From Limisphaerales bacterium (GTDB lineage: Bacteria > Verrucomicrobiota > Verrucomicrobiia > Limisphaerales > JADJPG01), in assembly GCA_044229355.1 (NCBI GenBank), contig JBGATF010000010.1, forward strand, positions 202,321 through 266,320: a DNA stretch of 64,000 nucleotides, read 5' to 3'. Position 1 is the first letter of the stretch. Each line of letters opens with the position of its first letter. Of the stretch, positions 17,161-46,641 are shown piece by piece. The translations under genes and the position numbers were made by a program. The notes under the pieces are model-generated. The model did not search any database. It was not told where the DNA came from and saw nothing but the letters and a program-made list of their open reading frames with translations.

Positions 17161-17232
17161 GGTCGTTTCCGCCGGGGCCACGTCTGGCTCCACTCGCGGT
17201 GTGACGATGGGGCGGACCTCGCGTGTCGTCGG

Positions 17233-24083: not shown

Positions 24084-27000
24084 GGCGTGCGCGCCGGCAC
24101 GGCGTAGCGCAGGGAGATTTTTTCCTCGTTGCGGTTGTTACGGCCGCTGAATTTGACTTCCATTTTGCTTCCGTGGTCGATGACGGTGACGAAGCCGAAG
24201 CCGCCCTCGCCGTCGCGCTCGCGGACGCGATACACGCCCTGGCTGTAGGGGCCGCCTTTGAGCGACGGGTTTTGGTCGAGAGGCGCGGCGCACATGACGG
24301 GGATGTGGACGCCGCCGCCGGTGGCGAAGTCACCATTGCTCCCATCATCTGCCGCCAGCATGTGGGAATCGCCGTGGAGGATGGCGACACCCTGGATGTG
24401 GTTTTCCTTGATGAAGTCGCAGATCTCGCGGCGCTCGGTGGCGAAGACGCTCCAATGATCCTGGTCGCCGATCGACGGGGCGTTGGTTTGCGCGCCGCCG
24501 CGACCGCCGGTGCCGCCGCGGCCGCCGCCCGGACCGCGCGCACGTCCGCCGTCCCGGTTGGTCCGCGCGGAGGGCGAATTGGTCAATGTGGTGTGGTGCA
24601 GATAACCCCAGTCGTTGGTGGTCACGCGGTAATAGTTGGTTCCGATCTGGCCGAGCCATGGGACGGTGCTGACCCAGAAGATGACGGGATATTTGCCGTT
24701 AGCCGCCAGCAGCTCTTGCTTGAACCACTCCTTTTGCCGGGCGCCCATCATGGACTTGGTCGCGTCGTCCTTGTTTGTGACGGAGTCCCGCTCGGAGCGC
24801 AGGTCAGTGATGATGAATTTAGTCCGGCCGACATTGAAGGACTGGTAAATCGCCTCGGGGCCTGCGCCGGTGACCAGAGGATAATGCGGGACATATTCCC
24901 GGTAGGCCATTCGGACGGCTTCGTGCGACAGGGCGTTTTTGTTGGCGTTGTTTCCGCCGTAATCGTGGTCGTCCCACACGTAGAAAAAGGCCGTGCTGCG
25001 ATAGAGTCGGGATTGCTGGGGCGAGGTCAGGACCAGGTCGTAGGCCTGACGGAACTTGTCGATGCTGCTGTTCGTCAGATCGAGATAATGAAAGTCCCCG
25101 ATGTTCATGTAGAACAGCGGGTGATTTTCGCGAATGGCGTCGAAGATGTCGCTGGTCGATGCCGTGCGTGCGCACGAGGCATAGGCGAAGCTGAACGATT
25201 TCGGGTCCGGTGGAAACGTGCGAAACTGCCCGCTCTTGCCGCGCTCCAGGCGGCCGTTCACTTCAACGACGTAGTAATATTGCGTGTCGGGCGCGAGCTG
25301 GCTGAGCTGGAATGCGACGACGTCGTAATGACTGGTGGACGATTGGGCGGGCCCGAAGTAGCGAAGGCCGGTGAGGTTTGATCTGGTGGTGAGGCCGAGG
25401 CGCGCATGCAGGCCGGGGCGGGAGAGCCGGACCTTGGCGTTGGCTTCGGTGGTGGCGACACCTCCGACCCACGGCCCGCGGGCGATCTCGGAATAGGCCA
25501 CTCCGAGCTGTTCAAAAAGGAATGAGTAACGATCCACGCGCTGGGCCACCCGTTCGTCGAGGGGGGTACCCAATCCATGCCCGCTCGTGGCGCTGGTGCG
25601 CAGCAGCACGGGACGACGCGACGCGGTGGCGGTCTGGAGGCGCGCGGCCATCTTGCGGGAGTGACCGGGATTGACCCGGCCGTCGTGCGCCCCGGTCATG
25701 AGGAGCACGGCCGGATAGGCCACCCGGTCGGTCACGCGGTGGTACGGGGAGTAGGCGTGCAACGCCTTGAATTGCGCCGGATCTTTGACCGAGCCGTACT
25801 CCGTGGTGTTGAATTGACCGTTGGGATCCAGTTCCACCCGCAACATGTCGAACAAGCCGACTTCAGCCACCGCCGCCCGGAACAGGTCCGGCCTCTGGGT
25901 CAGGGCGGCTCCGACCAACAGTCCGCCGTTGCTGCCGCCATGGATGGCCAGCCGGGCCGCTGACGTGTAATTCGATCGGATGAGCAGTTCGGCGCAGGCG
26001 ATGAAATCGTCGAAGACATTTTGCTTCTGCAACAGCCGGCCCCCGTCGTGCCACGCTTCGCCGAGCTCACCGCCGCCCCGCAGGCGCGCGATGACGACCT
26101 GGCCGCCTTGATCAAACCAGACCCGCCGCGTGAAGTCGAAATGCGGCACCTGACTGATGCCGAAGCCACCATAGCCCGTCAGGATGGTCGGCGTCTGGCC
26201 GTCCAGGGACTGGCCACGCCGGCGCAGAATGGTCATCGGGACGCGGGTCCCATCCTTCGAATGGGCGGCCGCCCGCACGACTTCGATATCCCGGAAGTCC
26301 GCCGGGGTGATCCCTTCGAGCGCGGTGTCGAGCATGCGCGTCGGGCTGACGGCCGGGTTGTAGACCTGCCATTCATATGGCGCGGTGTAGGTTTCGGTGC
26401 GGACCAGCACCTCATCGCCCCGGGGGCAGAACATCTCGTCGACCGCGAACAGGCTGTTGATCGGCAGGCGCCACTCGTTGCGCGGACCGCGCGGCGGCCG
26501 GCCGGAGCGCCCTTCGTCCGCATTCGTCGACCCGGTTGAATTCGGATTCGCATTGGCTCCACCGCTTTCCGGTTCCTGCCCGGACGTGTTGCCTTCCGCA
26601 TTGCTCGCCGATCCGGCGGCCGGGGTGTTTCCGGTCTGGCCCTCCTGGTTCTCGTTGGATCCCGCGGCCTCTGAAGATTCGGTTTCGCCCGATTCCGGCT
26701 GGCCGGTGGCCGACAGATAGAAATCGTGAAACCGGAGCGAGGCCGCCCCGCCGATGCGGTCTTCGATGTACAAACCGCGGGCCGAGGTCACGAAACTGGC
26801 GATGGCGTTGGTCCGGGCATTGATGACCTCGATGGCAGCCGAGAGCCGTTCCTCGGCCAGGGGCAGCCGGAGGATTCGTCCCATCGGCGCGTCCTTCGTC
26901 GACAAGAGGTAGAGCGCGTTGTCCCGCGGCCACTCGATGTAGATGGGGTCGCGACCGAACTGGATCGACTTGACCTTGTCGGCCGCTCCCGCGACTTGGC

Positions 27001-27892
27001 GCCACTTCCCCGCCGGGTCGCGCAGAAAGTGCAGAAAATCTCCGCCGTCACCGTCGCCCACCGAGGCCAGCAGGTATTTGCCGTCGTCGCTTGTCTTGAG
27101 CTGCACCTCGCCGATGCGGGGAAATTCGCGCCCGAGCTCGTAGCGATCCGCGGCGGCGGGCGTGCCGAGTTGATGGAAATAGACCTGTTGATAAAAGCGC
27201 GCGTCGGCTGGCGGGCGTTCCTCCGGCGCCGGGTAGCGAGTGTAGAAGAAACCCGAGCCGTCGTGGCTCCACGCCACGCTGCCGCCCGCCGTGGGGAATT
27301 GGACACGCGGGATGATGTCGGCGCGCCGCGTTCCGGAGGCGACTGCAAACACGTAAAGAGTCCCAGCCTCGCTGCCGGATTCGGACAACGACACCGCGAT
27401 GAGGCTGCCGTCGGGCGACGGCTCGTAAAAATCGATGCTGGTGCCGCCGCGGGGATCGAGGGCGTTGGGATCGATGACGACCCGTTCCGAGGAAAGATTG
27501 GTCAGCGACGTGAAGGTCACGAGGACCGACTGTTGCGCGGGCGGCTTGAACGCGATGGCGAAATACGCGCCGCGCCGCGCGCGCAGGTCGGAGTAATCCG
27601 CCGACACCACGCCGTAGAGTCGCTCCAGCTGGTAGACCAAATCCTTCCTCGTCGGGAGTGAGTCCAGGTGTTCGCGGGCGGCGCGGTTCTGGGCTTCCGT
27701 CCAGGTGCGGACCGCCGCGGATTCACCGTTCTCCAGCCATTGATACGGATCCTCCACCGCGATCCCGTGATAGTCGTTGCGGACAGGCTGGCGGGGGGTG
27801 CGCACCGTGGCGGCGGGGGAATCGATTCCGGTCAGCCAGCAGAAAATCGCGACGGCCAGCATGGACATGGCGTTCGGGCGAAGGCGGTGCAT
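24080..27892 (-). CDS. secreted fusion protein: prolyl oligopeptidase (S9A, N-terminal ~810 aa) plus PhoD-like metallophosphatase (C-terminal ~450 aa)
   Basis: One continuous 1270-aa ORF. N-terminal signal peptide; YHGIAVEDPYQWLEN (POP N-terminal motif), a beta-propeller region, catalytic GGSNGGLLVG / AHDGRV / SGHG triad. Then the PhoD_N beta-sandwich (YYYVVEVNGRLERGKSGQFRTFP) and PhoD motifs FAYASCAR, GDFHYLD, WDDHDYGGNN, GDSHM. A ~90-aa low-complexity insertion (QPESGETESSEAAGSNENQEGQTGNT...) sits in the POP part. Confidence 0.75.
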   Translation of the reverse strand: MHRLRPNAMSMLAVAIFCWLTGIDSPAATVRTPRQPVRNDYHGIAVEDPYQWLENGESAAVRTWTEAQNRAAREHLDSLPTRKDLVYQLERLYGVVSADYSDLRARRGAYFAIAFKPPAQQSVLVTFTSLTNLSSERVVIDPNALDPRGGTSIDFYEPSPDGSLIAVSLSESGSEAGTLYVFAVASGTRRADIIPRVQFPTAGGSVAWSHDGSGFFYTRYPAPEERPPADARFYQQVYFHQLGTPAAADRYELGREFPRIGEVQLKTSDDGKYLLASVGDGDGGDFLHFLRDPAGKWRQVAGAADKVKSIQFGRDPIYIEWPRDNALYLLSTKDAPMGRILRLPLAEERLSAAIEVINARTNAIASFVTSARGLYIEDRIGGAASLRFHDFYLSATGQPESGETESSEAAGSNENQEGQTGNTPAAGSASNAEGNTSGQEPESGGANANPNSTGSTNADEGRSGRPPRGPRNEWRLPINSLFAVDEMFCPRGDEVLVRTETYTAPYEWQVYNPAVSPTRMLDTALEGITPADFRDIEVVRAAAHSKDGTRVPMTILRRRGQSLDGQTPTILTGYGGFGISQVPHFDFTRRVWFDQGGQVVIARLRGGGELGEAWHDGGRLLQKQNVFDDFIACAELLIRSNYTSAARLAIHGGSNGGLLVGAALTQRPDLFRAAVAEVGLFDMLRVELDPNGQFNTTEYGSVKDPAQFKALHAYSPYHRVTDRVAYPAVLLMTGAHDGRVNPGHSRKMAARLQTATASRRPVLLRTSATSGHGLGTPLDERVAQRVDRYSFLFEQLGVAYSEIARGPWVGGVATTEANAKVRLSRPGLHARLGLTTRSNLTGLRYFGPAQSSTSHYDVVAFQLSQLAPDTQYYYVVEVNGRLERGKSGQFRTFPPDPKSFSFAYASCARTASTSDIFDAIRENHPLFYMNIGDFHYLDLTNSSIDKFRQAYDLVLTSPQQSRLYRSTAFFYVWDDHDYGGNNANKNALSHEAVRMAYREYVPHYPLVTGAGPEAIYQSFNVGRTKFIITDLRSERDSVTNKDDATKSMMGARQKEWFKQELLAANGKYPVIFWVSTVPWLGQIGTNYYRVTTNDWGYLHHTTLTNSPSARTNRDGGRARGPGGGRGGTGGRGGAQTNAPSIGDQDHWSVFATERREICDFIKENHIQGVAILHGDSHMLAADDGSNGDFATGGGVHIPVMCAAPLDQNPSLKGGPYSQGVYRVRERDGEGGFGFVTVIDHGSKMEVKFSGRNNRNEEKISLRYAVPARTP

Positions 27893-28090: not shown

Positions 28091-29269
28091 TCAGCGCACG
28101 TTACCGGCTCGGAGCTGGGCGAGTGGATAAAACGTTTCGCGCCAGCGGATCCCCCCGCGACACGAGGCCTTCGCGGCCGAGTTGATCAGCGCGTAGAAGA
28201 AGATGGGAAACATCAGCGGGATGAGCAGCGCGCCGCCCAGGCGCCAGCGCAAGCGTCGGGCCAGAACCATCCCGGGAACGATCAGCGAAAGCGGGGAAAG
28301 CGCGGCGGCTATACCTACAGGTGTACCGGAGAGAAGTCCGAGAATGATCACGGCCGAAGTAGAAAGCGCCACGACGGTCCCGAGCAAGACGAGCGAGGTT
28401 CGATATTCCAGCGCGGCGAAATAATTCTTCTCCATTATTTTTACGATGCTGAAGGCATTCCGGCCCCAATACGCCTCCACATCGTCGCCGCCGATAAACC
28501 CTCGCGTGCGTTTTCCGGCGCGCCGGAGAAGGAGCCCCAGCTTCATGTCGTCGAGGACGGTCAGCCGGAGCGCCTCGTACCCACCGCACTGCCGGTACGC
28601 CGCCGTCCGCACGAGATTAAACGCGCCGAATCCGAGGAAACGCTTTCCCGTGTCGCGATTCACTTCCGAAAACCAGTTGGCGGTCCCGGTGAGAAATAAC
28701 AGATGCGAGGCCACCAGGCCTCGCGTTTTTACAGAGATGCCGGACGCCAGCGTGATGTGGTCCACGTGTTCGCGTTCGGCGAGGCGGCAGGCTCTCGCGA
28801 TCACGTCTGGTTTCAACCAGCAATCCGCATCGGTAAACAGGATCCATTCGCCGGTGGCCGCGCCGGCGCCGAGGTGGCACGCGTGACACTTGCCGAGCCA
28901 GCCCTCGGGCAAGTTCGCCACGCGTTTTATCTGGATGCGGGGGTCTTCGTCCGAAAGCCGCCCGAGGATCGCGGCGGTCTGATCCTTGGAGCGATCGTCC
29001 ACAAGGATGATTTCCAGGTCCACGCCCAGTTGCTGAAGGAGGCACCGAATGGTCTGTTCGACGCGTGCCTCTTCGTCGCGCGCCGCGATGACCACTGAGC
29101 AGCGCACTTTGCCGTTGGCTGGCGGCAATTGATCCGAGGACGGCAATCGCGGCACCCAGCGCAAGTGCCACAATGTGACGACCGTCATGGCGAAGAACGC
29201 GGCCGCGGTGCCGCTGTAGAGGATCGTCATCCACATCCGCCGTGGATCGTCGCGAGAAACGTCCAACAA
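28091..29269 (-). CDS. family-2 glycosyltransferase (membrane-associated)
   Basis: 392 aa. GT-A motifs CSVVIAARDEEARVEQTI, DxD in ILVDDRS and FTDADC, C-terminal TM helices. Confidence 0.7.
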   Translation of the reverse strand: MLDVSRDDPRRMWMTILYSGTAAAFFAMTVVTLWHLRWVPRLPSSDQLPPANGKVRCSVVIAARDEEARVEQTIRCLLQQLGVDLEIILVDDRSKDQTAAILGRLSDEDPRIQIKRVANLPEGWLGKCHACHLGAGAATGEWILFTDADCWLKPDVIARACRLAEREHVDHITLASGISVKTRGLVASHLLFLTGTANWFSEVNRDTGKRFLGFGAFNLVRTAAYRQCGGYEALRLTVLDDMKLGLLLRRAGKRTRGFIGGDDVEAYWGRNAFSIVKIMEKNYFAALEYRTSLVLLGTVVALSTSAVIILGLLSGTPVGIAAALSPLSLIVPGMVLARRLRWRLGGALLIPLMFPIFFYALINSAAKASCRGGIRWRETFYPLAQLRAGNVR

Positions 29270-29388: not shown

Positions 29389-30189
29389 CTACCGTTGGCT
29401 GCCAACGAATGCGGCGAACAATCCGGCGACGAGCGCGAGGACCAAAAGGCCGAACAAGATCCAGACCACGATGGAGGTGCGGTATTTGATGTGAGGCGTC
29501 TGCTGGATGACGGCTTGATACTCGTCGGAGAACACCGTTTGTCCCTTTTGACTGAAGACGAGGTAGAGGATGTAACCGTTGATCAGCGTCCCGAGCGGGA
29601 ACCCGAGCAGGCCGAGGCCGGAAAGAATTCCGGTGGGGACGCGCGCCCATTTTTGCAGGCGCCGGAGGCCTGTGCCCACCCAGAGCTGGCCCGCGCCCAG
29701 CAAGAGGAGAAAGACTCCGACCAAGATGGCTAACCGGGGGCCATCCCTGGTGATCGACAGGAAACTCATCAATCCGACGAGCAACAGCCCTGCGCCGCCC
29801 AGATAGTAGAGCAGTCCGACCGATTTGATCGATGCTTCGTGTTTGAGGTGCTCCTTTCTCATTTGCTCGGCCGCAGTGCTGCCGCTCGCGCCTTCTTTCA
29901 GCCGCTGCAGGGCGAGGGGTTTGCACGCGGCACAGTAGACCGCGCCGGAGAGCGGGATGACCTCTGCGGCCGGAAAGGTGTGTCCGCAGCCGGCGCAAAT
30001 CGATCCGCTGGTTGCTGCGCGGGGCAGATCGGGTGTGGAGGCGACATGGCCGTACGGCTGCCAGTCGGCCATTCCTTCGCGCCAGACCAACGTTTGGGAA
30101 GTGACGACGCCTTGTTGAACGAGCTGCTGGAATTCATCTTCGTTCACCGGCCCTTTTTGTTCGGCTCCAGTCGCGTAGTGCCAGTTCAT
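29389..30189 (-). CDS. DUF4339 (GYF-like) domain membrane protein with Cys-rich zinc-ribbon-like segment and 4 TM helices
   Basis: Track ORF 29389..30297; the likely start is MNWHYATGAEQKGPVNEDEFQQLVQQGVVTSQTLVWREGMADWQPY (DUF4339 motif W-Y-Y...GP...L..L...G.I...T.VW..GM..W.P) at 30189. Followed by CAGCGH...CAAC and four hydrophobic helices. Confidence 0.55.
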   Translation of the reverse strand: MNWHYATGAEQKGPVNEDEFQQLVQQGVVTSQTLVWREGMADWQPYGHVASTPDLPRAATSGSICAGCGHTFPAAEVIPLSGAVYCAACKPLALQRLKEGASGSTAAEQMRKEHLKHEASIKSVGLLYYLGGAGLLLVGLMSFLSITRDGPRLAILVGVFLLLLGAGQLWVGTGLRRLQKWARVPTGILSGLGLLGFPLGTLINGYILYLVFSQKGQTVFSDEYQAVIQQTPHIKYRTSIVVWILFGLLVLALVAGLFAAFVGSQR

Positions 30190-30230
30190 GCGTGGATTGC
30201 TGGTGTTGCTGAGGGACGGTCGGGGCCAGT

Positions 30231-31136
30231 TCAAGAACGCCGATACTTGGATCCGGACGGCATGGTTTTGAAGCGATCGAGCGCGCTGCGTTTCCAATCG
30301 CCGCCTTCGCTCCCGGAGTGGTGCGTGTAGGGAGTTCCTGTTGTCGACGAAGGGGCGGGCGCGGGCGTGGCCGCACTCGCCGGGGCCGTGTCGCTGGCCG
30401 TCGCCGGAGTTGGCGCCGTCGCTGGCGGGCGCGCGGGCTCAGGAGCCGGGGTGGGCGACGGGCGACGTTCGAAAAACGAGGTCGAGACAAATGCGCTTGG
30501 CGAAGGCGCCGGCGCGGGTGTGGTCGCGGGTGTGGTCGCGGGCGGAGCGGCTGGTGAAACGGCCGGGGGAGCCGGCGTGGCGTGGCGGCTGGGCAGGGGC
30601 GGGGGCGTGGCGAGGTCGGAATCGTCAACCTGCCAGCCGAGGCGGACGCTCGGCGTGGGCCCGACATGCACCTCGACATTTCGGTAATGCAGCGTGGAGA
30701 GGCGGAGCTTTTCGCTGACTCCGTCGGCCTTGGCCAGGGCGGCGAGCAGGCCGTAGATGGTCTGCCGGCTGGAGTGAGTCGACATCAGAGATCGCAGGGT
30801 GGGCTCCGAGACCGCGGAGATTTTGTGGAAATGAACGATCAGGCGCTGGATGGGGCTAATCTCCATGTCGACCGCGGCCAGGGCATAGCCGGCCTCGGCG
30901 AAAACTTCGGCGTGGTCGTTAATCTCCCGCAAGGCCTGGGCGAGGCGATCGTCGCTGTCCGCGCGCAGGCCGGTGACGCTGGATTGGACGTCCATGCGCA
31001 ATTGTTGGAGCTGGCCGGCGGTCATCAGGACGGTATCGCGCAACTGGGCGGCCTGGCCGGGGGCGGCTTCGACGACCTGCTTCAGGTGGGCGGCCTTTTG
31101 GCTGAGGTCCTGGATTTTGGTGATGAACTTTTTCAT
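30231..31136 (-). CDS. hypothetical protein: helical N-domain plus Pro/Ala/Thr-rich disordered C-terminal half
   Basis: 301 aa. MKKFITKIQDLSQKAAHLKQVVEAAPGQAAQLRDTV... then PPPLPSRHATPAPPAVSPAAPPATTPATTPAPAPSP...PAPEPARPPATAPTPATASDTAPASAATPAPAPSST. 40 bp downstream of the giant ATPase gene, same strand. Confidence 0.4.
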   Translation of the reverse strand: MKKFITKIQDLSQKAAHLKQVVEAAPGQAAQLRDTVLMTAGQLQQLRMDVQSSVTGLRADSDDRLAQALREINDHAEVFAEAGYALAAVDMEISPIQRLIVHFHKISAVSEPTLRSLMSTHSSRQTIYGLLAALAKADGVSEKLRLSTLHYRNVEVHVGPTPSVRLGWQVDDSDLATPPPLPSRHATPAPPAVSPAAPPATTPATTPAPAPSPSAFVSTSFFERRPSPTPAPEPARPPATAPTPATASDTAPASAATPAPAPSSTTGTPYTHHSGSEGGDWKRSALDRFKTMPSGSKYRRS

Positions 31137-31177
31137 GGCGGAAGGAGGATCAGGGGAGCGGGCGTCAGGAAGCGGCT

Positions 31178-34100
31178 TCAGGCCGGGGGTGGTTGCGGCG
31201 GCTTGCGTTTGGGCGGCAGCGGGGGTGGGGCGGGATCGTTGGCGGGGTTAGGAGGGGGAGCCGAGCTGTCCTCCTTTTGCTGCAGCACCTCATGAAATTT
31301 TTCGAGGAACGCACGTTCATTGGTGAGCATTTCCTGGGTCAATTCGATCTCGACGGTGCCTTGCTTGGCGCGGGCGGCGAGGAGTTCCTGGGAGGAACGG
31401 AGGTGATCGCGTTGCTGGGCGGCGAGGTCTTTGAGCGTCGCGAGCGTGCTGTGAATCATCTCGAGCTCGTGGGAGAGGCTCTCGACTTTTTCGGCCATGG
31501 CACCGGAGTGGACGGCGGTGATGGCGCGGCTGAGATCCTCGCGCAGGGCCTTGAGGCCTTCGGCCAGTTGGGTGCCGACGCCGTTGCCATCGGGCCGCGC
31601 CGCCGGCGTCGAAGTCGTGGGGGGCGTGGGGGAGGGGACGGCGACCGGAGCCAGGCGTTGTTCGACGGTCTGGCGCAGAGACTCGAGCGTTTGACTGAGT
31701 GGGCTGAGATCGAGGGTCGGCGGCGCGGCTGGTTGGGCGAGGCGACGTTCGAGGGCACTGCCAATGGAAGTGAGGCCTCCACGGAAATCGGAGAGCTGAG
31801 CCACGATGCGGCCGACCGGATCGGAACTGTCCCCGCCGCGCGCGAGCAGGTTTCGGCGAAACGTGGCTTTGATTTCGTCCCACCGGGTTTGTTCAGCGGA
31901 GGAGAGCACGCCGGTGAGCTCTTTGAATTTCAAGAGATTGGCCTCGGCGCCGGTGGTGAGGTTCTGGGATTCGCCGCGATAATGATCGGCGAGGAGGGCG
32001 CGGACCTCCTCGTCGTTCATGGCCGAGACCACCTTTTCCGCGAGCCGGTTCATATTCCGGTAGGAGCCCTGCAGGCGGAAGGGAGGCTCGGTGCGGAACT
32101 CGTCGGCCTGGGCGGCAGAGTGGATATACTCCTGGTTGACGCGAAGGACGACCTCCCGGATGGCGACCAGCTTTTTCAGGACGCCGACGATCTCGTCGAC
32201 GTCCTGCTGGGAGTAGCTGCCTTCGAAGCCGGCCTCGGAGCGCTCGCCGGTGGACGCGAGGCGGATGAAGGCGCGGATGTCGGCCTGGCTCTTGTTGGCG
32301 AGTGGCGCAAGGACGGGATTGGAGGTGACCGCGTTTTCGAGGTAGCTGGCTTTGAACCACTCAGCGCTGCCGCCGATGATGTCGCCGAGGTTGTAGGTGT
32401 CGGCCCGGTTGGCGAGCATGTCGGGCAGCTTGAATTTCTGGCCGGTCTCGGTGTAGGGGTTGCCGGCCATGACGACGACGACCTTGCGTCCGCGCAGGTC
32501 GTAGGTGCGGGGGCGTCCACGCCAGACGCCTTCGATTTTTCTCTGTCCGTCGCAGAGCGAGATGAATTTCTGGAGGAACTCGGGGTTGGTGTGCTGGATG
32601 TCGTCGACGCAGATCATGACGTTGTCGCCCATCTCGAGCGACAGGTTGAGCTTCTCGATCTCTTCCCGGGCGGCGGCGTTGGGCGCTTCGGCCGGGTCGA
32701 GCGACGTGACGGCGTGCCCGAGGGCGGGGCCGTTGATCTTGACGAAGATGATGCCGAGCCGGCTCGCGATGTACTCCATCAGCGTGGTTTTGCCATAGCC
32801 GGGCGGGGAGATGAGGAGGAGCAGGCCCATCAAGTCGGTGCGTTTCGCGTCGCCGGCGGCGCCGATCTGCTTGGCGAGATTGTCGCCGATGAGCGGCAGG
32901 TAGACCTCGTCGATGAGCTGGTTGCGCACGAAGGACGTGAGGACGCGGGGCTTGAGTTCGTCCAGACGCAGCGGGGCGCGCTCGCGGTCGATGAGCTGCT
33001 GCTTGAGGCGGTGATATTGCTGAAAGCGCGGGACGACGTCGCGCTCGAAGCGCCGGAGCTTGTCGGTAAACGTGAGGTAGTGAAACGAATAGGTGCTGCC
33101 CTGGACGACGGCGTGGGCGCCCCGCATGCCCTCGAGCATGCGGGTGGCGGTGGCGGCAACCGGGGATCGCTGCAGTGCGTCGCCGCAATACAGGATGGCG
33201 GCGACCTCCTCGCGGTGGTTGGCGGCTTCGGGGCGGTCGAGGAGAAATCCGCGGACCCAGTCGCGGACGAGTTCGAGCTCACTGGCGGGGTGCTGGGCGA
33301 GCGTTTGGCGGGCTTGGGCAAACCCGGCGTCGCTGCCCTTGCCGGCGAGGTGGCGGGCGAACGCCGCGGCCAGTTGGTCGGCCTCCTGGCTGACGACGAA
33401 GCGGTCGTCGCCGACAAGTTCGTGGAAAAGATATTCGCCGGCGTCGGCGGCGATCGCGACGGGAAAAAGCGCGGTTTGTTCGATGAACGCGATGACGAGC
33501 GCCTGCAGTCCGCGGATGTAATCCAACTGGGCTGGGTCCCCGGGGAAGATGCGATTGCGTGCGGCGAAGCCTTTGAGCTTGGCGTCCCAGAGGGCGCGGG
33601 TCTCCGCCGGGCAGAACCGGTGCCAATAGACGAGGGCGCAGGCGCGGGCATCGGGATGGTAGCGGGCGAGCTGCAGCGCGACGTGAATCTCGGCGAGGGC
33701 GCGGAAGATCCTGGCGCCGTCGAGATCGTGAACGCCTTTGGTATAGCCTTCCTGGTAACGGCCGTTGATGAACTCGAGAAGGATGGCGTGGAGTTCGTCA
33801 TCGCTCAGTTTAACCGCGCCCGTCAGGTCGATCTTCCCGGCGCCCGAATCCGGGGGTGACTGCGGGATTGCGCGGGCCGGCGTCGTGGCTGTTCCGCCGG
33901 TTCCGGCGGGGGGGGCTGACGGGATCGACAAGGCTCCGTCGAGGGCCGCCTTGAGAAGTTGCCAGGCCAAATATTCGGCCCGGTAGACGGTGGCGTTTTC
34001 CGAGATGACTTCCTGGTCCCAGACGTCGCGGGTGGCGGCGAAGGCGTCGTCGTTGACGGGCTGGAAGAACCGGGTGCTGGTGAGGTGCAGGTGCGGGACG

Positions 34101-36823
34101 CCGTCGCGGTTGACGAGGGTGAGGTCGAGCGGCTGGGTGTTGATGTTGAACCGGTGGCGGCCGAGGCGGATGACGGGGGTTCCGCCGACGAAGAGCTCCC
34201 GGCGATCCTTGAGCTGGCGGATGGCATCCTGCTGGGCGCTTTTCAAGCGGCCCTGGAGGTCGTCGGCCTTGACCGAATCCTCGAGCGCGAGGAGCTGGGC
34301 GATGATCTCGCGCACCTTGGTGATCATCTGATCCGACGCCATGTAGGCGTGGATTTCCTCGAGCGATTTGAACCCGGCCAGCCGGTTCTGGACGACCTTG
34401 AGAATGCGTTCGGCGGCGGTCAGGAGCGCGGCGGCGCGGCGGTGGCGCTGTTCCACGAGGGCGACCTTGCGCTGTTCAAACGCCTCGTAGAGGGACGAAC
34501 GTTTCTCGGCCAGCTCGACGGTGTATTCTTCGAAATCAGCGAAGGCGCCCTCGAGTTCCTCGAGCTGGACGGAGAGGCGATTGAGGTAATCGTCGCACTT
34601 GCCCGGGGTGTCGCACAGGTCGACGTAGCTGGCGGCCGACTGGCTGAGCAGCTTCATCTGCGCGCCAAACTGGGCGGCGCCCTCGGCGGCGACGAGGGAC
34701 TGGAGGCGCTTTTTCAGCGCGGCCTTGACCTGGTTCAGGGTGGAATAAATCGCTGTGATGCTGTCGATGATCCGCGTGGTCTCGGTGGCGTCGTCGATGC
34801 GCAGGCTGTTGACGATTTCAATCAGCATCTCCAGCTCGCTGCCGGCCGCGGCGGTGGCCTTCTCAATCTGGCGGCCTTCGGCGGCCTTGGTGATTTTCTC
34901 GACGGCGGCGAGCTGGGCGTCGGCCTGTTGCCGATAGGGGTCGAGGGCGGCGGGTTTGAGCAGGAACTGGACGCAGGCCCGGGCCAACTCGTCGGTGCGC
35001 TCGATGACAGCCTGCTCGGACTGCGAGATTTGGGTCAGGTCGACGTAGCGGACCTCCTTGAGCGCGATCAGCTCGCCGCGGAGCTGACGCAAGGCGGTGA
35101 GATTTTGGACGAACTCCTCGAGGCGGTTGAGGCTGGAGCGGCGGACGAGTTGAAAGCGCTCGTCGCAGCGTTGGCGGGCGTCCTTGACCCGCTGCGCAGC
35201 CTCGCGTTGGAGGCGGCGAACCTTGTCGAATTCGTCGACGGCCTGATCGGCGGCGTCGCGCACGGCGCGGACGGCGGCGTCGATCTGGTGGCACTCGGCG
35301 TGAGCGAGCCAGGGGTAGGAGTCGAGCAGGGCGTTGCTGCGTTTGACGAGGTCGACGTAGAGCTCGGCGTAGGGATGTTCCTTGCGCGCGAGGGTGAGGA
35401 TCTCCTGACATTCGGCCAGGGCGCGAACAACGTCCTTGTTGCCGACCTGGTACAGAAACGCGTCCTTTTGGCCCGGAGGCTCGTGGCCGGGCAGGTGGAA
35501 GGGCGTCTGGCGGAGCTGCACCATGTGGTGCTTCTGCGGCTCCGCGTCGGCGCGAAAGAGCAGAAGGTTGCCATCGGCGAAGAGGGAGAAGCCATGGCAG
35601 GTGATGCGTTCCTCGACGCGCTGGGCGATGAGGCGATAGGGCATCAGCACATATTCGCCCGTGTCGTGGGCGTAAAAGACGTAGAGGGTGTCCTCGCCAT
35701 TGGGGGCGGAGACCACCCGCTCCAGGGTCAGGCCGGTTTCGCGGCCGTCAAATTGTTTGAGCTCGCCGGTCCCGAGGTAATAGCCGTCGGGGAAGATGAG
35801 GCCGTGCTCCTCGGGCAGGCGGCAGCATGATTGGCCGATGGAGTCGACGCGGACGACGGACTGCTGCTTTTCGTTGAAGATGAAATAGCGGGCGGCGCGT
35901 TCCTTGTACGGCCGGATTTTCAGGAGGATCAGGTGATCGAGAATGGCGTAGGCGATCTCCGCGTCGTCGACCTTTTGAAACTTGTCATCGACCGGCTCGG
36001 CGTGAATGCCCTCGCCGGTCGCGGTGTTGTCTTCGACCTTGATCGTCAGGTCGCCGCCGACGCATTCGACAAAGACGCGATCCTCGATCGAGATGTGGGG
36101 ATGATCGCCGTAGCGGAAGGACTCGCGATCGGGCGTGATCCAACGAAAATCGTGGGGCGGCGGGAAGGCGGACTTGCGGAATTCGGTTTCGCTGCGGCCG
36201 TCGAGGTAGCGAAGCTGGCCGCCATTGAATTCCCATTTGAAGACGGCGAGGTCGTTCAGGGCCGGGCCGATGGAGAACACCATGTACAACCGGCCGGCGA
36301 GGAGCGAGAACTTGGCGAAGGCGGCCTTCTCATAGACGTTGTAGAGCCGCTTGAAGTCGGCGATGAAGTTCTTGTCCTGGAGAATCTCGACGCCGACGTC
36401 CCGAAACGTGCCGGCGGCCATGTCTCGCTCATAAACGGCGAAGACGTCGGGCAAATCGATCTCCTTTTTCAGGCCGAAACGGACGTTGAAGCCGAAGAGA
36501 AACCGTCCGCGGCCGAGCTGGACCATGTCGCGGGGGATGCAGTTGTGAGCCGTGACGACGCGATCCGCCTGCAGAAGTTTGTATTCGATGGCGCCGAACA
36601 CTTCCTGGCGTCGGGCATCGAGGCGGGCCATGCGTTCGCGCAGCAGGTCGCCCTGGGTCTGCAGCCGCTGGCGGATGAGTTCGTAGGTGGCGCTGCCGAG
36701 GGCGGCGGAGGCATCCGGCGCGGGTCCGGAGCTGGCGGCGCTGGAGGCGGGCGCGGTCGCAGTTGCGTCCGCGGCCGCGGCTGCGGGCGGCATCGGCGTG
36801 GACGTGTCGCCGGGCTCAGCCAT
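31178..36823 (-). CDS. giant (1881 aa) protein with a single MoxR/AAA_5-like AAA+ ATPase module near the C-terminal third, extensive coiled-coil, Pro-rich termini
   Basis: Walker A LLLISPPGYGKTTLMEYIA, Walker B VMICVDDIQ, then ...RKVVVVMAGNPYTETGQKFKLPDMLANRADTYNL (AAA_5-type sensor-1 hhhATxNP and arginine). The N-terminal ~480 aa are beta-rich, the central ~700 aa helical/coiled-coil, and both termini are Pro/Ala-rich. 52 bp downstream of the flotillin gene. Confidence 0.6.
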   Translation of the reverse strand: MAEPGDTSTPMPPAAAAADATATAPASSAASSGPAPDASAALGSATYELIRQRLQTQGDLLRERMARLDARRQEVFGAIEYKLLQADRVVTAHNCIPRDMVQLGRGRFLFGFNVRFGLKKEIDLPDVFAVYERDMAAGTFRDVGVEILQDKNFIADFKRLYNVYEKAAFAKFSLLAGRLYMVFSIGPALNDLAVFKWEFNGGQLRYLDGRSETEFRKSAFPPPHDFRWITPDRESFRYGDHPHISIEDRVFVECVGGDLTIKVEDNTATGEGIHAEPVDDKFQKVDDAEIAYAILDHLILLKIRPYKERAARYFIFNEKQQSVVRVDSIGQSCCRLPEEHGLIFPDGYYLGTGELKQFDGRETGLTLERVVSAPNGEDTLYVFYAHDTGEYVLMPYRLIAQRVEERITCHGFSLFADGNLLLFRADAEPQKHHMVQLRQTPFHLPGHEPPGQKDAFLYQVGNKDVVRALAECQEILTLARKEHPYAELYVDLVKRSNALLDSYPWLAHAECHQIDAAVRAVRDAADQAVDEFDKVRRLQREAAQRVKDARQRCDERFQLVRRSSLNRLEEFVQNLTALRQLRGELIALKEVRYVDLTQISQSEQAVIERTDELARACVQFLLKPAALDPYRQQADAQLAAVEKITKAAEGRQIEKATAAAGSELEMLIEIVNSLRIDDATETTRIIDSITAIYSTLNQVKAALKKRLQSLVAAEGAAQFGAQMKLLSQSAASYVDLCDTPGKCDDYLNRLSVQLEELEGAFADFEEYTVELAEKRSSLYEAFEQRKVALVEQRHRRAAALLTAAERILKVVQNRLAGFKSLEEIHAYMASDQMITKVREIIAQLLALEDSVKADDLQGRLKSAQQDAIRQLKDRRELFVGGTPVIRLGRHRFNINTQPLDLTLVNRDGVPHLHLTSTRFFQPVNDDAFAATRDVWDQEVISENATVYRAEYLAWQLLKAALDGALSIPSAPPAGTGGTATTPARAIPQSPPDSGAGKIDLTGAVKLSDDELHAILLEFINGRYQEGYTKGVHDLDGARIFRALAEIHVALQLARYHPDARACALVYWHRFCPAETRALWDAKLKGFAARNRIFPGDPAQLDYIRGLQALVIAFIEQTALFPVAIAADAGEYLFHELVGDDRFVVSQEADQLAAAFARHLAGKGSDAGFAQARQTLAQHPASELELVRDWVRGFLLDRPEAANHREEVAAILYCGDALQRSPVAATATRMLEGMRGAHAVVQGSTYSFHYLTFTDKLRRFERDVVPRFQQYHRLKQQLIDRERAPLRLDELKPRVLTSFVRNQLIDEVYLPLIGDNLAKQIGAAGDAKRTDLMGLLLLISPPGYGKTTLMEYIASRLGIIFVKINGPALGHAVTSLDPAEAPNAAAREEIEKLNLSLEMGDNVMICVDDIQHTNPEFLQKFISLCDGQRKIEGVWRGRPRTYDLRGRKVVVVMAGNPYTETGQKFKLPDMLANRADTYNLGDIIGGSAEWFKASYLENAVTSNPVLAPLANKSQADIRAFIRLASTGERSEAGFEGSYSQQDVDEIVGVLKKLVAIREVVLRVNQEYIHSAAQADEFRTEPPFRLQGSYRNMNRLAEKVVSAMNDEEVRALLADHYRGESQNLTTGAEANLLKFKELTGVLSSAEQTRWDEIKATFRRNLLARGGDSSDPVGRIVAQLSDFRGGLTSIGSALERRLAQPAAPPTLDLSPLSQTLESLRQTVEQRLAPVAVPSPTPPTTSTPAARPDGNGVGTQLAEGLKALREDLSRAITAVHSGAMAEKVESLSHELEMIHSTLATLKDLAAQQRDHLRSSQELLAARAKQGTVEIELTQEMLTNERAFLEKFHEVLQQKEDSSAPPPNPANDPAPPPLPPKRKPPQPPPA

Positions 36824-36874
36824 GATGATGATGGCGGCGGTGGCGGCTGGGGCGGTGGGGTTGGCCGCCGGTCG

Positions 36875-39049
36875 TCATGCTTTGGTTTCGAGGTTCTCGG
36901 TGAGCGCCTCGGCGGCGGCGACGTTGGCGAGGCCGGTCGCCTTGGCGGTGTCGAGCGCCGCGCGGATCAGCCCTCGCACGGAGGAGTCCTTGGTCGTGGT
37001 CAGCAATCGGCCGAGGAGGGCCGCCACGGTCAGGTTTTTGACATCGGCCGAGGAGATCCCGAAATCGGCGATCCACTGTTTGAGCTGGGACCTGAAGTAA
37101 TCGCCATCGCCGTTGAAGAAGGTGTTCTTCACGTCGGTCAGCGTGCGGCTGTTGAGGACCATGCGATCGACGGATTTGCCGGTGCTGACGGCGCGGACGA
37201 CTTTTTCGAAGAAGTCGTTTTCGCCGCCGACGATGTCGATATTGGCGTGTCGGAGGGCCTCGCCCACGAGCTGGGAATTGGCCTGGGCGATGTCTTTTTG
37301 CACATGGATGGCGGCGAGATCGACGTCGCGTTCCTTGGCGAGGCGGAGTTTGAACTCCTCGTGTTCGCGGCCGGCCTCGTGGAGCAGCTTCATGGCCTCG
37401 GCTTTTTGCTGGATGGCCTTCGCCTCGGCCGAGCCGCGGGCTTCGATGCCGGTGGCGACGGCCAATTCCCGTTCCTTGGTTCCCTCGGCCTCGGCCTCCG
37501 CCTGCGTTTGGGTGTTATCGGCGTGGACCTTGCCCTTGGCCTTGATCACTTCGGCTTCGGCGAGGCCGACATCCCGGATGGCGAGGGCTTCAGTTTGTTT
37601 CGCCGTGGCCTTGGCCGCGATGATCTTGGCCTCCGCCAGCCCGTGGGCGGCCTCGCGGGCGGCGATGGCTTCGGCTTCCTGGAGGGCGGCGTGCCGGCGT
37701 TTCTCCGAGGCCTTGGCCTCGGCGTCAGCGATCGTCTGGAGGCGCTCGGCTTCGCGCTGGGCGGCTTCGCGGGCCGCTTCGGCCGAGGTGACGAGTTTGA
37801 TCTTGTCGGCCTCCGCGAGGTTGCGCTCGGCTTCCTTTTGGGCCTCCGAGGCGACGACCTTTTCGACCTGATCCTTTTTGGCGTTCATCTCGGCCTCGAT
37901 CAGGGTGACCTCGCGCACGCGCTCGGCGGTCATGCGCGCCTCGATGTTCAACTTTTCCTCCTCCTGCTGGACGACGGCCTTTTGTTCGGCCACGACGACG
38001 GCGCGCTTCCGTTCCACCTCGACGCCGGCCTCGGCGACCTTGACGTCCTTGTCCATCTCGGCGAGGCGGACGGTGCGTTCGCGGCGCACGCGGGCCTCTT
38101 CGCCCTCCTGGACGGCCTCCTGCTCGAGGCGTTGCTTTTCCTTTTTCACGGTGAACTCGCGCTCCTGGACGGCACGGTTCATGTCCTCGGTGCGGAGGCG
38201 GATGGATTCGTCGGCTTCGAGGCGCTTGCCTTCGACCTCTTGGCGGCGGGCTTCGATCACCTTGCGCGACTCGGCCTCCTCGTTGGCCTTCACCTCAGTG
38301 ATGGCGCGGGTTTGTTTGGCGGTGTCCTCCTCATTGCGCCGGCGCTGTTCACGTTTGGCGATCTCGGCATCGGCGTTCTCCTTTTCCACCTGGACCTGGG
38401 CGCGCTGGGTGAATTCGTTGGCGATGACGCGTTCGCGCTGGGTGATTTCGGTGATCTTCTTGATGCCCTCGGCGTCGAGCACGTTGCTGGGGTCGTGCTG
38501 GTCAAGCGGGGTCTGCTCGATGTAGTCGATGGCGACGTCCTGCAGGAAAAAGCCGTCGAGGTCCTTCCCGATGGTGTTTTGGATCTGGTCGCGAAACTTG
38601 ATGCGCTCGGTGAAGAGCTCGTGAAACTCCATTTGTTTGCCAGCGGTTTTCAGGGCCTCCGAAAATTTTGCCTCGAAGAGCTCGCGCAGTTGGGTGATGT
38701 CCGAAACGCGCTCGGGCGTGAGCATTTGGGCGACCTTGCGGACGCTTTCCACGGTGGATTCCACGCGAATGTAGAAGGCCACGATGATGTCCGCGCGGAT
38801 GTTGTCCTTGCAGACGAGGCCGTCCTTGCCTTTGCGGGAGATCTCGAGCTTTTTCACCGAGATGTCGACGATGTGATAGGTCTGAATGGCGGGGATGCGG
38901 AGCATCCAATCGAAGGAGATGTTGACTCCGCCGAAGCCGGTGCGGAGCCCCGCGCGTCCGGGCTGGATCTTTCGAACGCAGACAAAAAAAGCGGCCAGCA
39001 GACCGGCGAGGACGAGAAAACCAACAACCGCGAGGATGAATGGAGTCAT
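36875..39049 (-). CDS. flotillin-like SPFH/band-7 protein with an exceptionally long E/A/K/R-rich coiled-coil
   Basis: 724 aa. N-terminal TM (ILAVVGFLVLAGLLAAFFV), SPFH domain (...IPAIQTYHIVDISVKKLEI...DIIVAFYIRV...), ~350 aa of flotillin-type EA repeats (AEAEVIKAKG, AEAKIIAAKATAKQTEALAIR ...) and a flotillin C-terminal region. Confidence 0.8.
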   Translation of the reverse strand: MTPFILAVVGFLVLAGLLAAFFVCVRKIQPGRAGLRTGFGGVNISFDWMLRIPAIQTYHIVDISVKKLEISRKGKDGLVCKDNIRADIIVAFYIRVESTVESVRKVAQMLTPERVSDITQLRELFEAKFSEALKTAGKQMEFHELFTERIKFRDQIQNTIGKDLDGFFLQDVAIDYIEQTPLDQHDPSNVLDAEGIKKITEITQRERVIANEFTQRAQVQVEKENADAEIAKREQRRRNEEDTAKQTRAITEVKANEEAESRKVIEARRQEVEGKRLEADESIRLRTEDMNRAVQEREFTVKKEKQRLEQEAVQEGEEARVRRERTVRLAEMDKDVKVAEAGVEVERKRAVVVAEQKAVVQQEEEKLNIEARMTAERVREVTLIEAEMNAKKDQVEKVVASEAQKEAERNLAEADKIKLVTSAEAAREAAQREAERLQTIADAEAKASEKRRHAALQEAEAIAAREAAHGLAEAKIIAAKATAKQTEALAIRDVGLAEAEVIKAKGKVHADNTQTQAEAEAEGTKERELAVATGIEARGSAEAKAIQQKAEAMKLLHEAGREHEEFKLRLAKERDVDLAAIHVQKDIAQANSQLVGEALRHANIDIVGGENDFFEKVVRAVSTGKSVDRMVLNSRTLTDVKNTFFNGDGDYFRSQLKQWIADFGISSADVKNLTVAALLGRLLTTTKDSSVRGLIRAALDTAKATGLANVAAAEALTENLETKA

Positions 39050-39262
39050 TTCAGTGGGGTGGGTTCAGCGGTCGGCGTGAGGTGATGGGAGACGGTCCAC
39101 GGGAAACAGCAGCCCGAATTGGTCGGCGGATTCTGGACGGCGTTTCGGACGCACGCCCGTGAGTAGCAAAATCGCCGCAGGCGATCCAATAGAATTTCCC
39201 GGGGACTTTTGAATCGATTTCAATATTCGGGCGCGCAGGGACGTCCAGACTCCACCAACAAC

Positions 39263-40714
39263 ATGAAAACCACCAATCGCCGGACATTTCTCAAGAGCGC
39301 TGCCGTCTCCGCCACCGCGGTGAGCTGGAGCGCCCGATCGTGGGCGCAGGTCGCGGGCGCCAATTCGGACGTGCGCTACGCGGTGATCGGCTTCAACGGC
39401 CGCGGGCGGGACCACTTGGGCGGATTGAGCAAGGTGAAGGGATGCCGGCTGACGGGACTGTGCGATGTGGACAGTGCGGTGCTGGACAAGGAGCGCCAGG
39501 CCTGGGCGGAGAAGGGGTTGGTGACGGAGGCGGTGACGGACCTGCGAAAGCTCCTGGAGAGCAAAAATGTCGATGCGGTTTCCATCGCCACGCCAAACCA
39601 CTGGCATTCGCTCGCGGCGATCTGGGCGATTCAGGCGGGCAAGGATGTGTATGTGGAGAAGCCGGTTTCGCACAACGTATTTGAGGGGCGCAAGCTCGTT
39701 GAGGCGGCGCGCAAATATCAGAAAATTGTCCAGACAGGAACGCAAAGCCGGAGCAGCCAAGGAATCCGCGAGGCCGTGGCCTGGGTGCGCGCCGGCAACC
39801 TCGGCCGGATTCTCGTCGCGCGAGGCCTTTGCTACAAGCCGCGCCCGAGCATCGGGAAGGTCATGGAGCCGCAGCCGCCGCCCGCGACGGTGAATTACGA
39901 TTTGTGGTGCGGTCCGGCCCCCATGGACCCGATCCGCCGCCAGAAGTTCCATTATGACTGGCACTGGATCTGGAACTACGGCAACGGAGACTTGGGCAAT
40001 CAGGGCATCCACCAGATGGACATCGCGCGCTGGTTCCTGGGCGAGATGGAGCTATCGCCGCGTGTTCTCAGCGTCGGCGGACGCCTCGGTTACGACGATG
40101 ACGGCGAAACCGCCAACACCCAGCTGGTGTTCCACGATTACGAAAAGGCGCCGCTGGTTTTCGAGGTTCGTGGCCTGCCTGACCGAAAGGAGGCCAAGGC
40201 CATGAGCACGTATCCCGCCGGCACGGGCGGCAGCGTGGCCGTCGTGGTCCACTGCGAAGGCGGGTACGTGGTCGTGCCCAATTACTCCAGCGCCACGGCC
40301 TACGATCGGGATGGATCCCAAATCAAGAAGTGGTCGGGCTCCTCGGATCACTATCAGAATTTCATCAACGCGGTTCGCAGTCGCAAGCACACCGACCTGA
40401 ATGCGGACATCCTCGAAGGCCATTTGAGCAGCGGACTTTGCCACACCGGGAATGTATCCTATCGACTGGGCCAGCCGGATTCGCTGCCAGCCATGCGGGG
40501 GCGCCTCCAGCGGGACATCGTCAAGAGCGAGGCCTTCGAGCGCATGGTGGATCATCTGCGGGCGAACGAGGTGGACCTGGATCTGACCAAGGCCACCCTG
40601 GGGGTTCCGCTGGCGATGGACGCGAAGGCTGAGAAGTTTGTCGGCAATGATGCGGCCAACCTCCTGCTGACCCGCGAGTATCGCAAGCCGTACGTGGTGC
40701 CGGACGTCGTGTAG
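39263..40714 (+). CDS. Gfo/Idh/MocA-family oxidoreductase with twin-arginine signal
   Basis: Start MKTTNRRTFLKSAAVSATAVSWSARSWAQ (TAT motif RRTFLK). Rossmann VIGFNGRGRDHLGG, family motif EKPVSHNVFEGRKLVEAARKY. Confidence 0.8.
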   Translation: MKTTNRRTFLKSAAVSATAVSWSARSWAQVAGANSDVRYAVIGFNGRGRDHLGGLSKVKGCRLTGLCDVDSAVLDKERQAWAEKGLVTEAVTDLRKLLESKNVDAVSIATPNHWHSLAAIWAIQAGKDVYVEKPVSHNVFEGRKLVEAARKYQKIVQTGTQSRSSQGIREAVAWVRAGNLGRILVARGLCYKPRPSIGKVMEPQPPPATVNYDLWCGPAPMDPIRRQKFHYDWHWIWNYGNGDLGNQGIHQMDIARWFLGEMELSPRVLSVGGRLGYDDDGETANTQLVFHDYEKAPLVFEVRGLPDRKEAKAMSTYPAGTGGSVAVVVHCEGGYVVVPNYSSATAYDRDGSQIKKWSGSSDHYQNFINAVRSRKHTDLNADILEGHLSSGLCHTGNVSYRLGQPDSLPAMRGRLQRDIVKSEAFERMVDHLRANEVDLDLTKATLGVPLAMDAKAEKFVGNDAANLLLTREYRKPYVVPDVV

Positions 40715-46333: not shown

Positions 46334-46641
46334 GCCCTCTCGGCGGCTACCTGCTTCTCAGCGCGGTGCTGTTTTGCGTCGGGCTGGCTGGCGCGCTGGC
46401 GCGGCGCAACGCCATCATGGTCCTGGTGGGCATCGAGCTGATGCTGAACGCGGCGAATCTGAACTTCATTGCCTTCTGGCGATATGGTCCGAACCCGGAA
46501 GCCTTGCAGGGAGTGCTCTTTGTGATCTTCGCGATTGCCGTGGCAGCGGCGGAGGCGGCGGTCGGCCTGGCGTTGATCATCGCCATTTACCGATTCTACC
46601 GGACGACGAATGTGGATGAAGTGGAGGGGATGAAGGGGTGA
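46329..46641 (+). CDS. nuoK: NADH-quinone oxidoreductase subunit K
   Basis: ~103 aa, 3 TM: [41 protein letters not shown]... (ND4L signature). Probable TTG start overlapping the nuoJ stop. Confidence 0.8.

Follow-up and report, generated by a model that had tools for sequence, protein, structure and literature searches.

The window analysed here, a 64,000-nucleotide stretch of contig JBGATF010000010.1 from a Limisphaerales bacterium, encodes a long SPFH/flotillin-like (YqiK/FloT-type) scaffold protein (36875-39049, minus strand) and, directly behind it, a giant soluble ATPase of the DUF3686 family (31178-36823, minus strand). Gene order across bacteria strongly supports the prediction that the two form a genuine functional unit. 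The flotillin-like gene lies directly upstream of the giant gene, on the same strand, in 69 of 72 informative loci (96%) from at least seven phyla. We read the locus as the Verrucomicrobial (Limisphaerales-type) version of a widespread flotillin-ATPase module that may use ATP to remodel flotillin-based membrane assemblies, an interpretation that we favour with moderate confidence.

For this comparison, one genome per species was scanned and 80 loci were kept, drawn from Verrucomicrobiota, Planctomycetota, Bacteroidota, Desulfobacterota, Kiritimatiellota, Clostridia and Fibrobacterota. The 72 loci with more than 2.5 kb of upstream DNA were counted as informative, and it is the same-strand adjacency in 69 of them that strongly supports a functional link. 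The original prediction, an earlier annotation of this DNA, had named synteny across genomes as the check on the pairing, and giant homologues that never stand beside SPFH genes as one of two grounds for abandoning it; the loci show the opposite. Among the informative loci, a giant gene without an upstream flotillin gene occurs only in L025, L026 and L056, where unrelated ORFs (open reading frames) take its place, which suggests rearrangement or insertion. The upstream ORF of L025 resembles a DNA methyltransferase by its N-terminus.

The pair is also present in Actinomycetota, Deinococcota and Gammaproteobacteria. Annotated plasmid and chromid loci in which a flotillin/SPFH gene is followed by a 'DNA repair ATPase' come from Hymenobacter, the P. 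fluorescens plasmid pQBR103, two Streptomyces plasmids and Deinococcus, and copies of the giant family reside on large plasmids (pQBR103 and plasmids of Hymenobacter, Deinococcus and Streptomyces). In about 51 loci the flotillin gene in turn stands right behind a YqiJ/DUF1449 (NfeD-like) gene, and a CesT/Tir-like and PspA pair is found further upstream in about 16-18 Bacteroidota loci. The Hymenobacter and pQBR103 neighbourhoods likewise contain a PspA gene. No conserved client gene was found near the pair: YqiJ, PspA, CesT or p3, a third protein discussed below, are the only recurrent neighbours.

On pQBR103 (L004, 980-6104), the pair is part of a same-strand cluster with yjfI, pspA (yjfJ), a rhomboid gene, DUF2491, DUF350 and DUF1190 genes and a glutathionylspermidine-synthase-like gene. 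This is an E. coli yjf-type membrane-stress and polyamine cluster. Three conserved ORFs are located downstream of the giant gene in the Bacteroidota loci L034 (7084-9295), L067 and L075. DUF4178-like and DUF350 (YjfL)-like proteins are among their products, judged by eye from the N-termini, and we take these for the polyamine- and PspA-associated gene set.

The flotillin-AAA+ association is already in the literature, since Ravi et al. (mSystems 2024; preprint 2020; PMC11237479) describe an operon of CesT/Tir, PspA, YqiJ/YuaF, a band-7+coiled-coil+flotillin protein and a beta-propeller+coiled-coil+AAA+ protein. The statement in the original prediction that no such system had been described is therefore withdrawn. 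The YqiJ/YuaF-type protein of these operons bears three transmembrane (TM) segments, and abbreviated operons without PspA are widespread (PMC11237479). An example in their Table S3, the neighbourhood of Dokdonia donghaensis ANH61663.1, has the same order as our Flavobacteriaceae loci; these and our Hymenobacter loci read CesT/Tir-PspA-YqiJ-flotillin-ATPase, as published. The published association is a purely computational observation. Further literature searches on the flotillin-ATPase pair found nothing beyond Ravi et al., and a survey of SPFH proteins in P. aeruginosa is silent on the ATPase. With the core association published in 2020 (preprint) and 2024, the advance made here is incremental. 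New here is the Limisphaerales-type variant, which has gained p3 and lacks YqiJ and PspA in its operon.

In the window, the two core genes (724 and 1881 amino acids, aa) head an array of four minus-strand genes. They are followed by p3 (30231-31136, 301 aa), a clade-specific third component, and by a gene encoding a GYF_2 domain, a zinc ribbon and four TM segments (29389-30189, 266 aa). The ORF of this last gene (29389-30297) opens with TTG, and the sensible start is the ATG at 30189 (MNWHY...). The ORF coordinates confirm the four genes as originally predicted. The intergenic gaps measure 51, 41 and 41 bp, so that only the first of the earlier values (52, 41 and 41 bp) needs correction, and terminator-like hairpins are absent from all three. 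The nearest homologues belong to Verrucomicrobiota/Limisphaerales, which bears out the earlier guess of an origin in the PVC (Planctomycetes-Verrucomicrobia-Chlamydiae) superphylum.

The giant protein begins with an N-terminal helix that precedes a full-length DUF3686 domain (35315-36643, minus strand, aa 61-503; PF12458, E 5e-164, profile positions 2-447 of 448). This region has been described as beta-propeller repeats, and the whole architecture as 'Betapropeller+Coiled-coil+AAA-ATPase' (Ravi et al. 2024, Table S3, PMC11237479). A helical and coiled-coil region (aa ~505-900) follows, which contains a DUF7902 segment (34700-34948, minus strand, aa 626-708; PF25472, E 9e-25). After a middle region, the AAA+ module spans aa ~1290-1650 (31874-32956, minus strand), with a Pfam-matched core at aa 1335-1463. 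A C-terminal tail (31181-31873, minus strand, aa ~1651-1881; PPPLPPKRKPPQPPPA) combines helical stretches and low-complexity segments with a Pro-rich end. Tails range from ~50 to more than 300 aa between loci. The giant bears no TM segment, and we found no protease, recognisable substrate-binding, nuclease, toxin, sensor, MIT, DNA-binding or ABC/SMC head domain in the system. The DUF3686 and DUF7902 matches are the strongest signals in the giant and had not been part of the original prediction.

The giant family is large. A word-indexed search returned more than 2,600 homologues, clustering at 50% identity gave 433 clusters (E<1e-30), and the family occurs in at least 584 species-level genomes; an exact look-up found no database record identical to the window protein. 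NCBI names the family 'DNA repair ATPase', echoing the Pfam description of DUF3686 as 'ATPase involved in DNA repair'. Taken at its word, this name would make the giant a DNA repair or SMC/Rad50-like ATPase whose adjacency to a flotillin gene has no functional meaning, and a long coiled coil and weak RuvB_N matches could be cited for it. The RuvB matches, however, cover the P-loop only and fall far below cut-offs (21.9 bits versus 282), and DNA-binding, nuclease and ABC/SMC head domains are among those not found. The 96% synteny with a membrane scaffold and the recurrent YqiJ and PspA neighbours favour a role at the membrane. No paper that we found backs the name, and none came up that links a 'DNA repair ATPase' with flotillin. 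We therefore give a DNA repair function hardly any credence and conclude that the name is without support and very probably wrong.

The nucleotide-binding site of the giant is well preserved. It comprises a Walker A motif SPPGYGKTT (K1345), a Walker B motif that ends in DD rather than DE (D1407-D1408, DDIQH), and the motifs AGNPYTE (N1455), LANRAD (R1473) and QGSYRNM (R1589). All of these motif residues are invariant in an alignment of 51 sequences that includes the window protein (30-48% identity), which points to a selected site predicted to hydrolyse nucleotides. The single AAA+ module named in the original prediction is upheld; its assignment as MoxR/AAA_5-like is not. In the window protein, Pfam AAA scores E 4e-6 and AAA_5 1.6e-4, and the two tie in 11 of 11 diverse giant relatives (4.6e-9 versus 4.1e-9). 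The AAA_5 match (positions 2-128 of the 139 in the profile) runs through sensor 1, and in PDB profile searches only the P-loop region aligns, to Rix7, p97 and RuvB. Because the two models tie and the PDB matches are confined to the P-loop, MoxR/AAA_5 membership is not established.

These matches bear on the main rival to a remodelling function. The flotillin could be no more than a platform, and the giant could unfold, extract or assemble other membrane proteins or complexes that collect in its microdomain, much as in HflK/C-FtsH or prohibitin-m-AAA but without a protease. SPFH cages are known partners of AAA+ machines (PMC12048511), and chaperone-like assembly roles have been proposed for the band-7, AAA+ and CesT partners of PspA (Ravi et al., PMC11237479). 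The region ahead of Walker A and the P-loop of the giant also resemble the classical AAA unfoldases Rix7 and p97. That the giant belongs to the classical AAA clade is not established, however, and neither a protease nor a recognisable substrate-binding domain was found. Nor do the neighbourhoods contain a conserved client gene; YqiJ, PspA, CesT and p3 alone recur. We regard such client-directed quality control as rather unlikely.

The 724-aa protein upstream is less easily recognised. It matches no Pfam model (even at E<=10), Flot (PF15975) and Band_7 (PF01145) included, no NCBIfam or PADLOC model, and no PDB sequence in a phmmer search; PDB profile searches gave only a weak match to the coiled coil of QmcA. 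It does align over its full length with the partner protein of pQBR103 (34% identity, E 1e-84), which matches Band_7 at aa 33-183 (E 9e-11), and equally with a Streptomyces protein annotated as 'flotillin family protein' (38% identity, E 6e-114). Its Verrucomicrobial homologues, at 76-89% identity, are named flotillin or YqiK in their source records, and 6 of 37 syntenic partners match Band_7 directly. On this full-length homology to Band_7-matching and flotillin-named proteins, the assignment to a divergent subfamily of long flotillins (about 640-730 aa) holds indirectly. The original flotillin call is sustained by this route and not by any direct model match.

Within this protein, a hydrophobic N-terminus evident in the sequence provides a putative membrane anchor (aa ~4-25). 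Next come a divergent SPFH domain (aa ~26-185, by transitive homology), an E/A/K-rich helical region of ~400 aa and a conserved C-terminal domain (aa ~600-715). The AlphaFold2 (AF2) model, built on a shallow alignment of 23 sequences, shows continuous helices at aa 193-601. Its mean pLDDT (predicted local distance difference test) is 56.6, and the SPFH part, below 50, is unreliable. FloT and YqiK have about 509-553 aa, and the window protein is thus about 170-215 aa longer.

The window belongs to a Limisphaerales-type clade that includes L001, L002, L009-L011, L013 and L089, with L014 and L015 more distant. In all of its members but these last two, p3 (265-307 aa) is encoded directly 3' of the giant gene, often with a 4-bp overlap. 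A hidden Markov model (HMM) search of all loci matched p3 solely in the 10 p3 loci and the window, and the family has no more than 91 members, all of them unnamed and free of Pfam domains. Neither tblastn searches of the 64-kb window nor the other p3-bearing loci revealed a YqiJ-like sequence. In this sample p3 and YqiJ are mutually exclusive. PspA was not found in the window either (tblastn with two PspA queries), nor was a CesT/Tir gene, in the operon or elsewhere in the 64 kb. The missing NfeD partner of the original prediction is therefore a property of this clade; most relatives do carry a YqiJ/NfeD-like gene upstream of the flotillin gene. A variant without YqiJ implies that the NfeD/YqiJ partner is dispensable or replaceable.

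An AF2 model of p3 from 77 sequences predicts that aa 2-74 form a helical hairpin and that a compact alpha/beta domain extends to aa ~170, with pLDDT 93-98 for aa 60-170. A Pro-rich disordered linker (aa ~171-280) connects it to a short, conserved C-terminal helix or motif (aa 278-301), GDWKRSALDRFKxMPxxSKYRR. The description of p3 as a disordered Pro-rich protein fits the linker and fails for the well-folded N-terminal domain. No relative was found in the PDB. The predicted topology, helices and a four-stranded sheet, is reminiscent of the 'PspAA' domain of Ravi et al., a domain that Pfam does not model.

Several candidate identities for p3 were rejected. A lead towards a PspA/ESCRT-III-like protein (Pfam PspA_IM30, E 0.015) fell to a probability of 1.2% in hhalign against a PspA profile, and a profile comparison with CesT/Tir-like chaperones gave 0.45%. 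A split-off piece of the longer giant C-termini is excluded by the HMM, which finds p3 only where p3 genes are; an apparent p3-giant fusion in L010 is an overlap of frames. Nor is p3 tied to a long giant tail, as Planctomycetota and Desulfobacterota loci with YqiJ are also long-tailed.

In L014 (15611-16465, minus strand) and L015 (8425-9318, minus strand), from metagenome-assembled genomes of marine Verrucomicrobiales and Pedosphaera, a p3-like gene is convergent to the giant gene. The p3-like gene of L014 has behind it an ORF of 234 aa (16655-17359, plus strand) with an HKD (phospholipase D-like) motif, which recalls the phospholipase D gene mentioned in some operons by Ravi et al. (PMC11237479).

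The fourth gene of the array encodes the membrane protein with DUF4339, now GYF_2, that the original prediction had listed. The domain match is clear (E 5e-17; a GltJ-like GYF region), and a CxxC...CxxC motif and four hydrophobic helices are visible in the sequence. The GT2 (family 2) glycosyltransferase gene expected next downstream is present as well (28091-29269; Glycos_transf_2, E 6.6e-25). No other locus examined carries a GYF_2/TM gene at this position. Even in the closest relative (L089, GCA_044230345.1), whose giant is 83% identical, p3 is followed by an ECF (extracytoplasmic function) sigma factor and a Ser/Thr kinase. Since the gene is not conserved even there, it is probably a bystander, an adjacent and possibly co-transcribed neighbour rather than part of the system.

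The original prediction had instead joined all four genes into one machine. In one such form the locus would be a PVC-specific endomembrane or trafficking machine in which the GYF-TM protein anchors p3 and the giant by their Pro-rich tails. Binding of Pro-rich peptides is a general property of GYF domains, both p3 and the giant tail are Pro-rich, and the 41-bp gap to the GYF_2 gene is free of terminators. The core pair, however, occurs in many phyla outside PVC, and the GYF_2 gene is missing at this position from every other locus. We therefore consider a four-gene machine very improbable. A lineage-specific link between the GYF_2 protein and the Pro-rich p3 or giant is conceivable.

The closest relative also informs on how the module is inherited. 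Between the window and GCA_044230345.1, identities are 93% for DnaA, 89% for the flotillin-like protein, 87% for NuoH, 83% for a GFO oxidoreductase, 83% for the giant and 61% for p3, and both genomes keep the order dnaA-hypothetical-GFO-flotillin-giant-p3. The dnaA-like gene, whose product is 93% identical to the L089 DnaA-domain protein, lies ~3 kb upstream of the operon and is followed by nuo genes (NuoH, NuoL-like; 42209-43636, 44501-45721 and 46638-48884, plus strand). The genes around the operon are of housekeeping type: LigA, the nuo genes and oxidoreductases. GC skew is positive over the whole 64 kb, and there is no sign change near dnaA.

This setting argues against a role in defence, which the original prediction had offered as an alternative and which would cast the pair as a membrane-associated system acting against phages or plasmids by abortive infection. 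The copies on large plasmids and flanking genes that vary between genomes could be taken in its favour, as could the reaction of PspA-type systems to membrane damage caused by phages. PADLOC also returned a weak LmuB match (E 8e-6), but this covers only the coiled coil of the giant (aa 565-908). The other PADLOC match is a low-complexity one to PD-T4-6 (E 0.004), and the flotillin-like and GYF proteins match no PADLOC model. There are no homologues in 50,697 phage records, and nuclease, toxin and sensor domains were not found. Conservation at the level of core genes such as DnaA and NuoH, synteny kept with dnaA and nuo genes, the lack of phage copies and the lack of convincing defence models mean that a vertically inherited cellular function fits better than a defence island. 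We regard a defence role as quite improbable.

We thus return to ATP-driven remodelling of flotillin assemblies. Membrane remodelling had been suggested in the original prediction and is the most reasonable reading. Pairings of SPFH proteins with AAA+ proteins and with PspA have precedents in HflK/C-FtsH (PMC12048511) and YdjI-PspA (PMC8581546), respectively. By analogy with other SPFH proteins, the flotillin would oligomerise into a dome or ring at the cytoplasmic side of the membrane. The giant would most likely dock onto this assembly via its propeller and coiled-coil parts and, when the membrane is under stress or repair, spend ATP to assemble, remodel or recycle flotillin scaffolds as well as any PspA polymers. 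Its Walker A and sensor motifs do not vary among the aligned giants, and Walker B is an invariant DD. In the Limisphaerales-type clade, p3 may serve as an adaptor or regulator in which a flexible Pro-rich tether connects the folded head to a C-terminal docking motif. A narrower and more tentative proposal, possible rather than likely, is that the giant is a dedicated, ATP-driven assembly or disassembly factor of flotillin domes, a 'Vps4 for SPFH scaffolds', and that p3, as a new orphan adaptor with an alpha/beta fold not seen before, has replaced NfeD/YqiJ in Limisphaerales-type Verrucomicrobia. If so, flotillin microdomains would be actively turned over.

Several points weigh against a remodelling function. 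The SPFH domain of the window protein is assigned by transitive homology, in the part where the AF2 model is unreliable, and the beta-propeller fold of DUF3686 is a literature assignment (PMC11237479). With DD in place of DE in Walker B, ATP hydrolysis may be slow or regulatory. With Pfam AAA and AAA_5 matching it equally well, the giant could work by a threading or by a non-threading mechanism. As no PspA or YqiJ homologue was detected in the 64-kb window, a link to the phage-shock-protein (PSP) response is indirect for this clade. Finally, our literature search found no paper that mentions DUF3686.

The near-obligate partnership with a 180-200 kDa ATPase offers a testable handle on the function of bacterial flotillins and on the control of their assembly. 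The flotillin-giant pair occurs in hundreds of species across many phyla, among them culturable Pseudomonas (pQBR103), Proteus, Vibrio, Streptomyces, Hymenobacter and Flavobacteriaceae. With p3, the Limisphaerales-type variant brings a further orphan family into the system. 'DNA repair ATPase', a widely propagated product name, is unfit as a basis for inference.

The window encodes two further large proteins. A 1270-aa prolyl oligopeptidase (24080-27892, minus strand; Peptidase_S9_N and S9) is fused to a PhoD-like phosphatase domain, and a 2126-aa protein (56137-62517, minus strand) carries four lamin-tail domains, a CotH kinase-like domain and Ig domains. Very long stop-free frames run antisense over the operon (up to 1084 aa; for example 35831-39085 and 31193-33859, plus strand), and another such frame lies at 39065-40012 (minus strand). 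The long frames antisense to real genes are artefacts of high GC content and not genes.

Compared with known systems, the locus is closest to the operons of Ravi et al., which have the same two core proteins, in the same order and of the same architecture. It differs in that the window clade lacks CesT/Tir, PspA and YqiJ, and in the downstream p3, which the paper does not mention. Like E. coli yqiJK and B. subtilis yuaF-floT, it encodes a membrane-anchored SPFH protein with an EA-rich coiled coil, and in most relatives of the window pair a YqiJ-like gene likewise stands ahead of the flotillin gene. Unlike these model operons, its flotillin escapes Pfam Band_7 and Flot and is paired with a giant ATPase that they lack. 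MoxR/AAA_5 (dynein-related) ATPases resemble the giant in their single AAA+ module, and AAA_5 does match it; the 'NP' after sensor 1 and the 'NRAD' of the giant are similar to MoxR-type motifs in an alignment read by eye only. In contrast to MoxR systems, there is no adjacent VWA gene, classical Pfam AAA scores equally, and the best PDB matches are P-loops of classical AAA proteins and RuvB.

Other comparisons concern scaffolds and their ATPases. In HflK/C-FtsH, an SPFH scaffold and an AAA+ machine form a functional pair at the membrane (PMC12048511), and QmcA-YbbJ cages are cited in PMC13086221. The pairing of an SPFH scaffold with an AAA+ protein is what the window shares with HflK/C-FtsH and prohibitin-m-AAA. 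FtsH, however, is a membrane-embedded AAA protease inside a periplasm-facing cage, whereas the giant has neither a TM segment nor a protease and bears a propeller and a coiled coil instead; homology is limited to the generic AAA+ fold. In B. subtilis, YdjI links PspA to the membrane (PMC8581546). ESCRT-III/PspA-Vps4 differs from the window system in several respects, as the latter has no MIT domain, the giant is unrelated to Vps4 beyond AAA+, and p3 is not PspA-like. Both nevertheless combine a membrane-bound polymeric scaffold with a dedicated ATPase, and PspA is genomically linked to the pair in Bacteroidota and on pQBR103.

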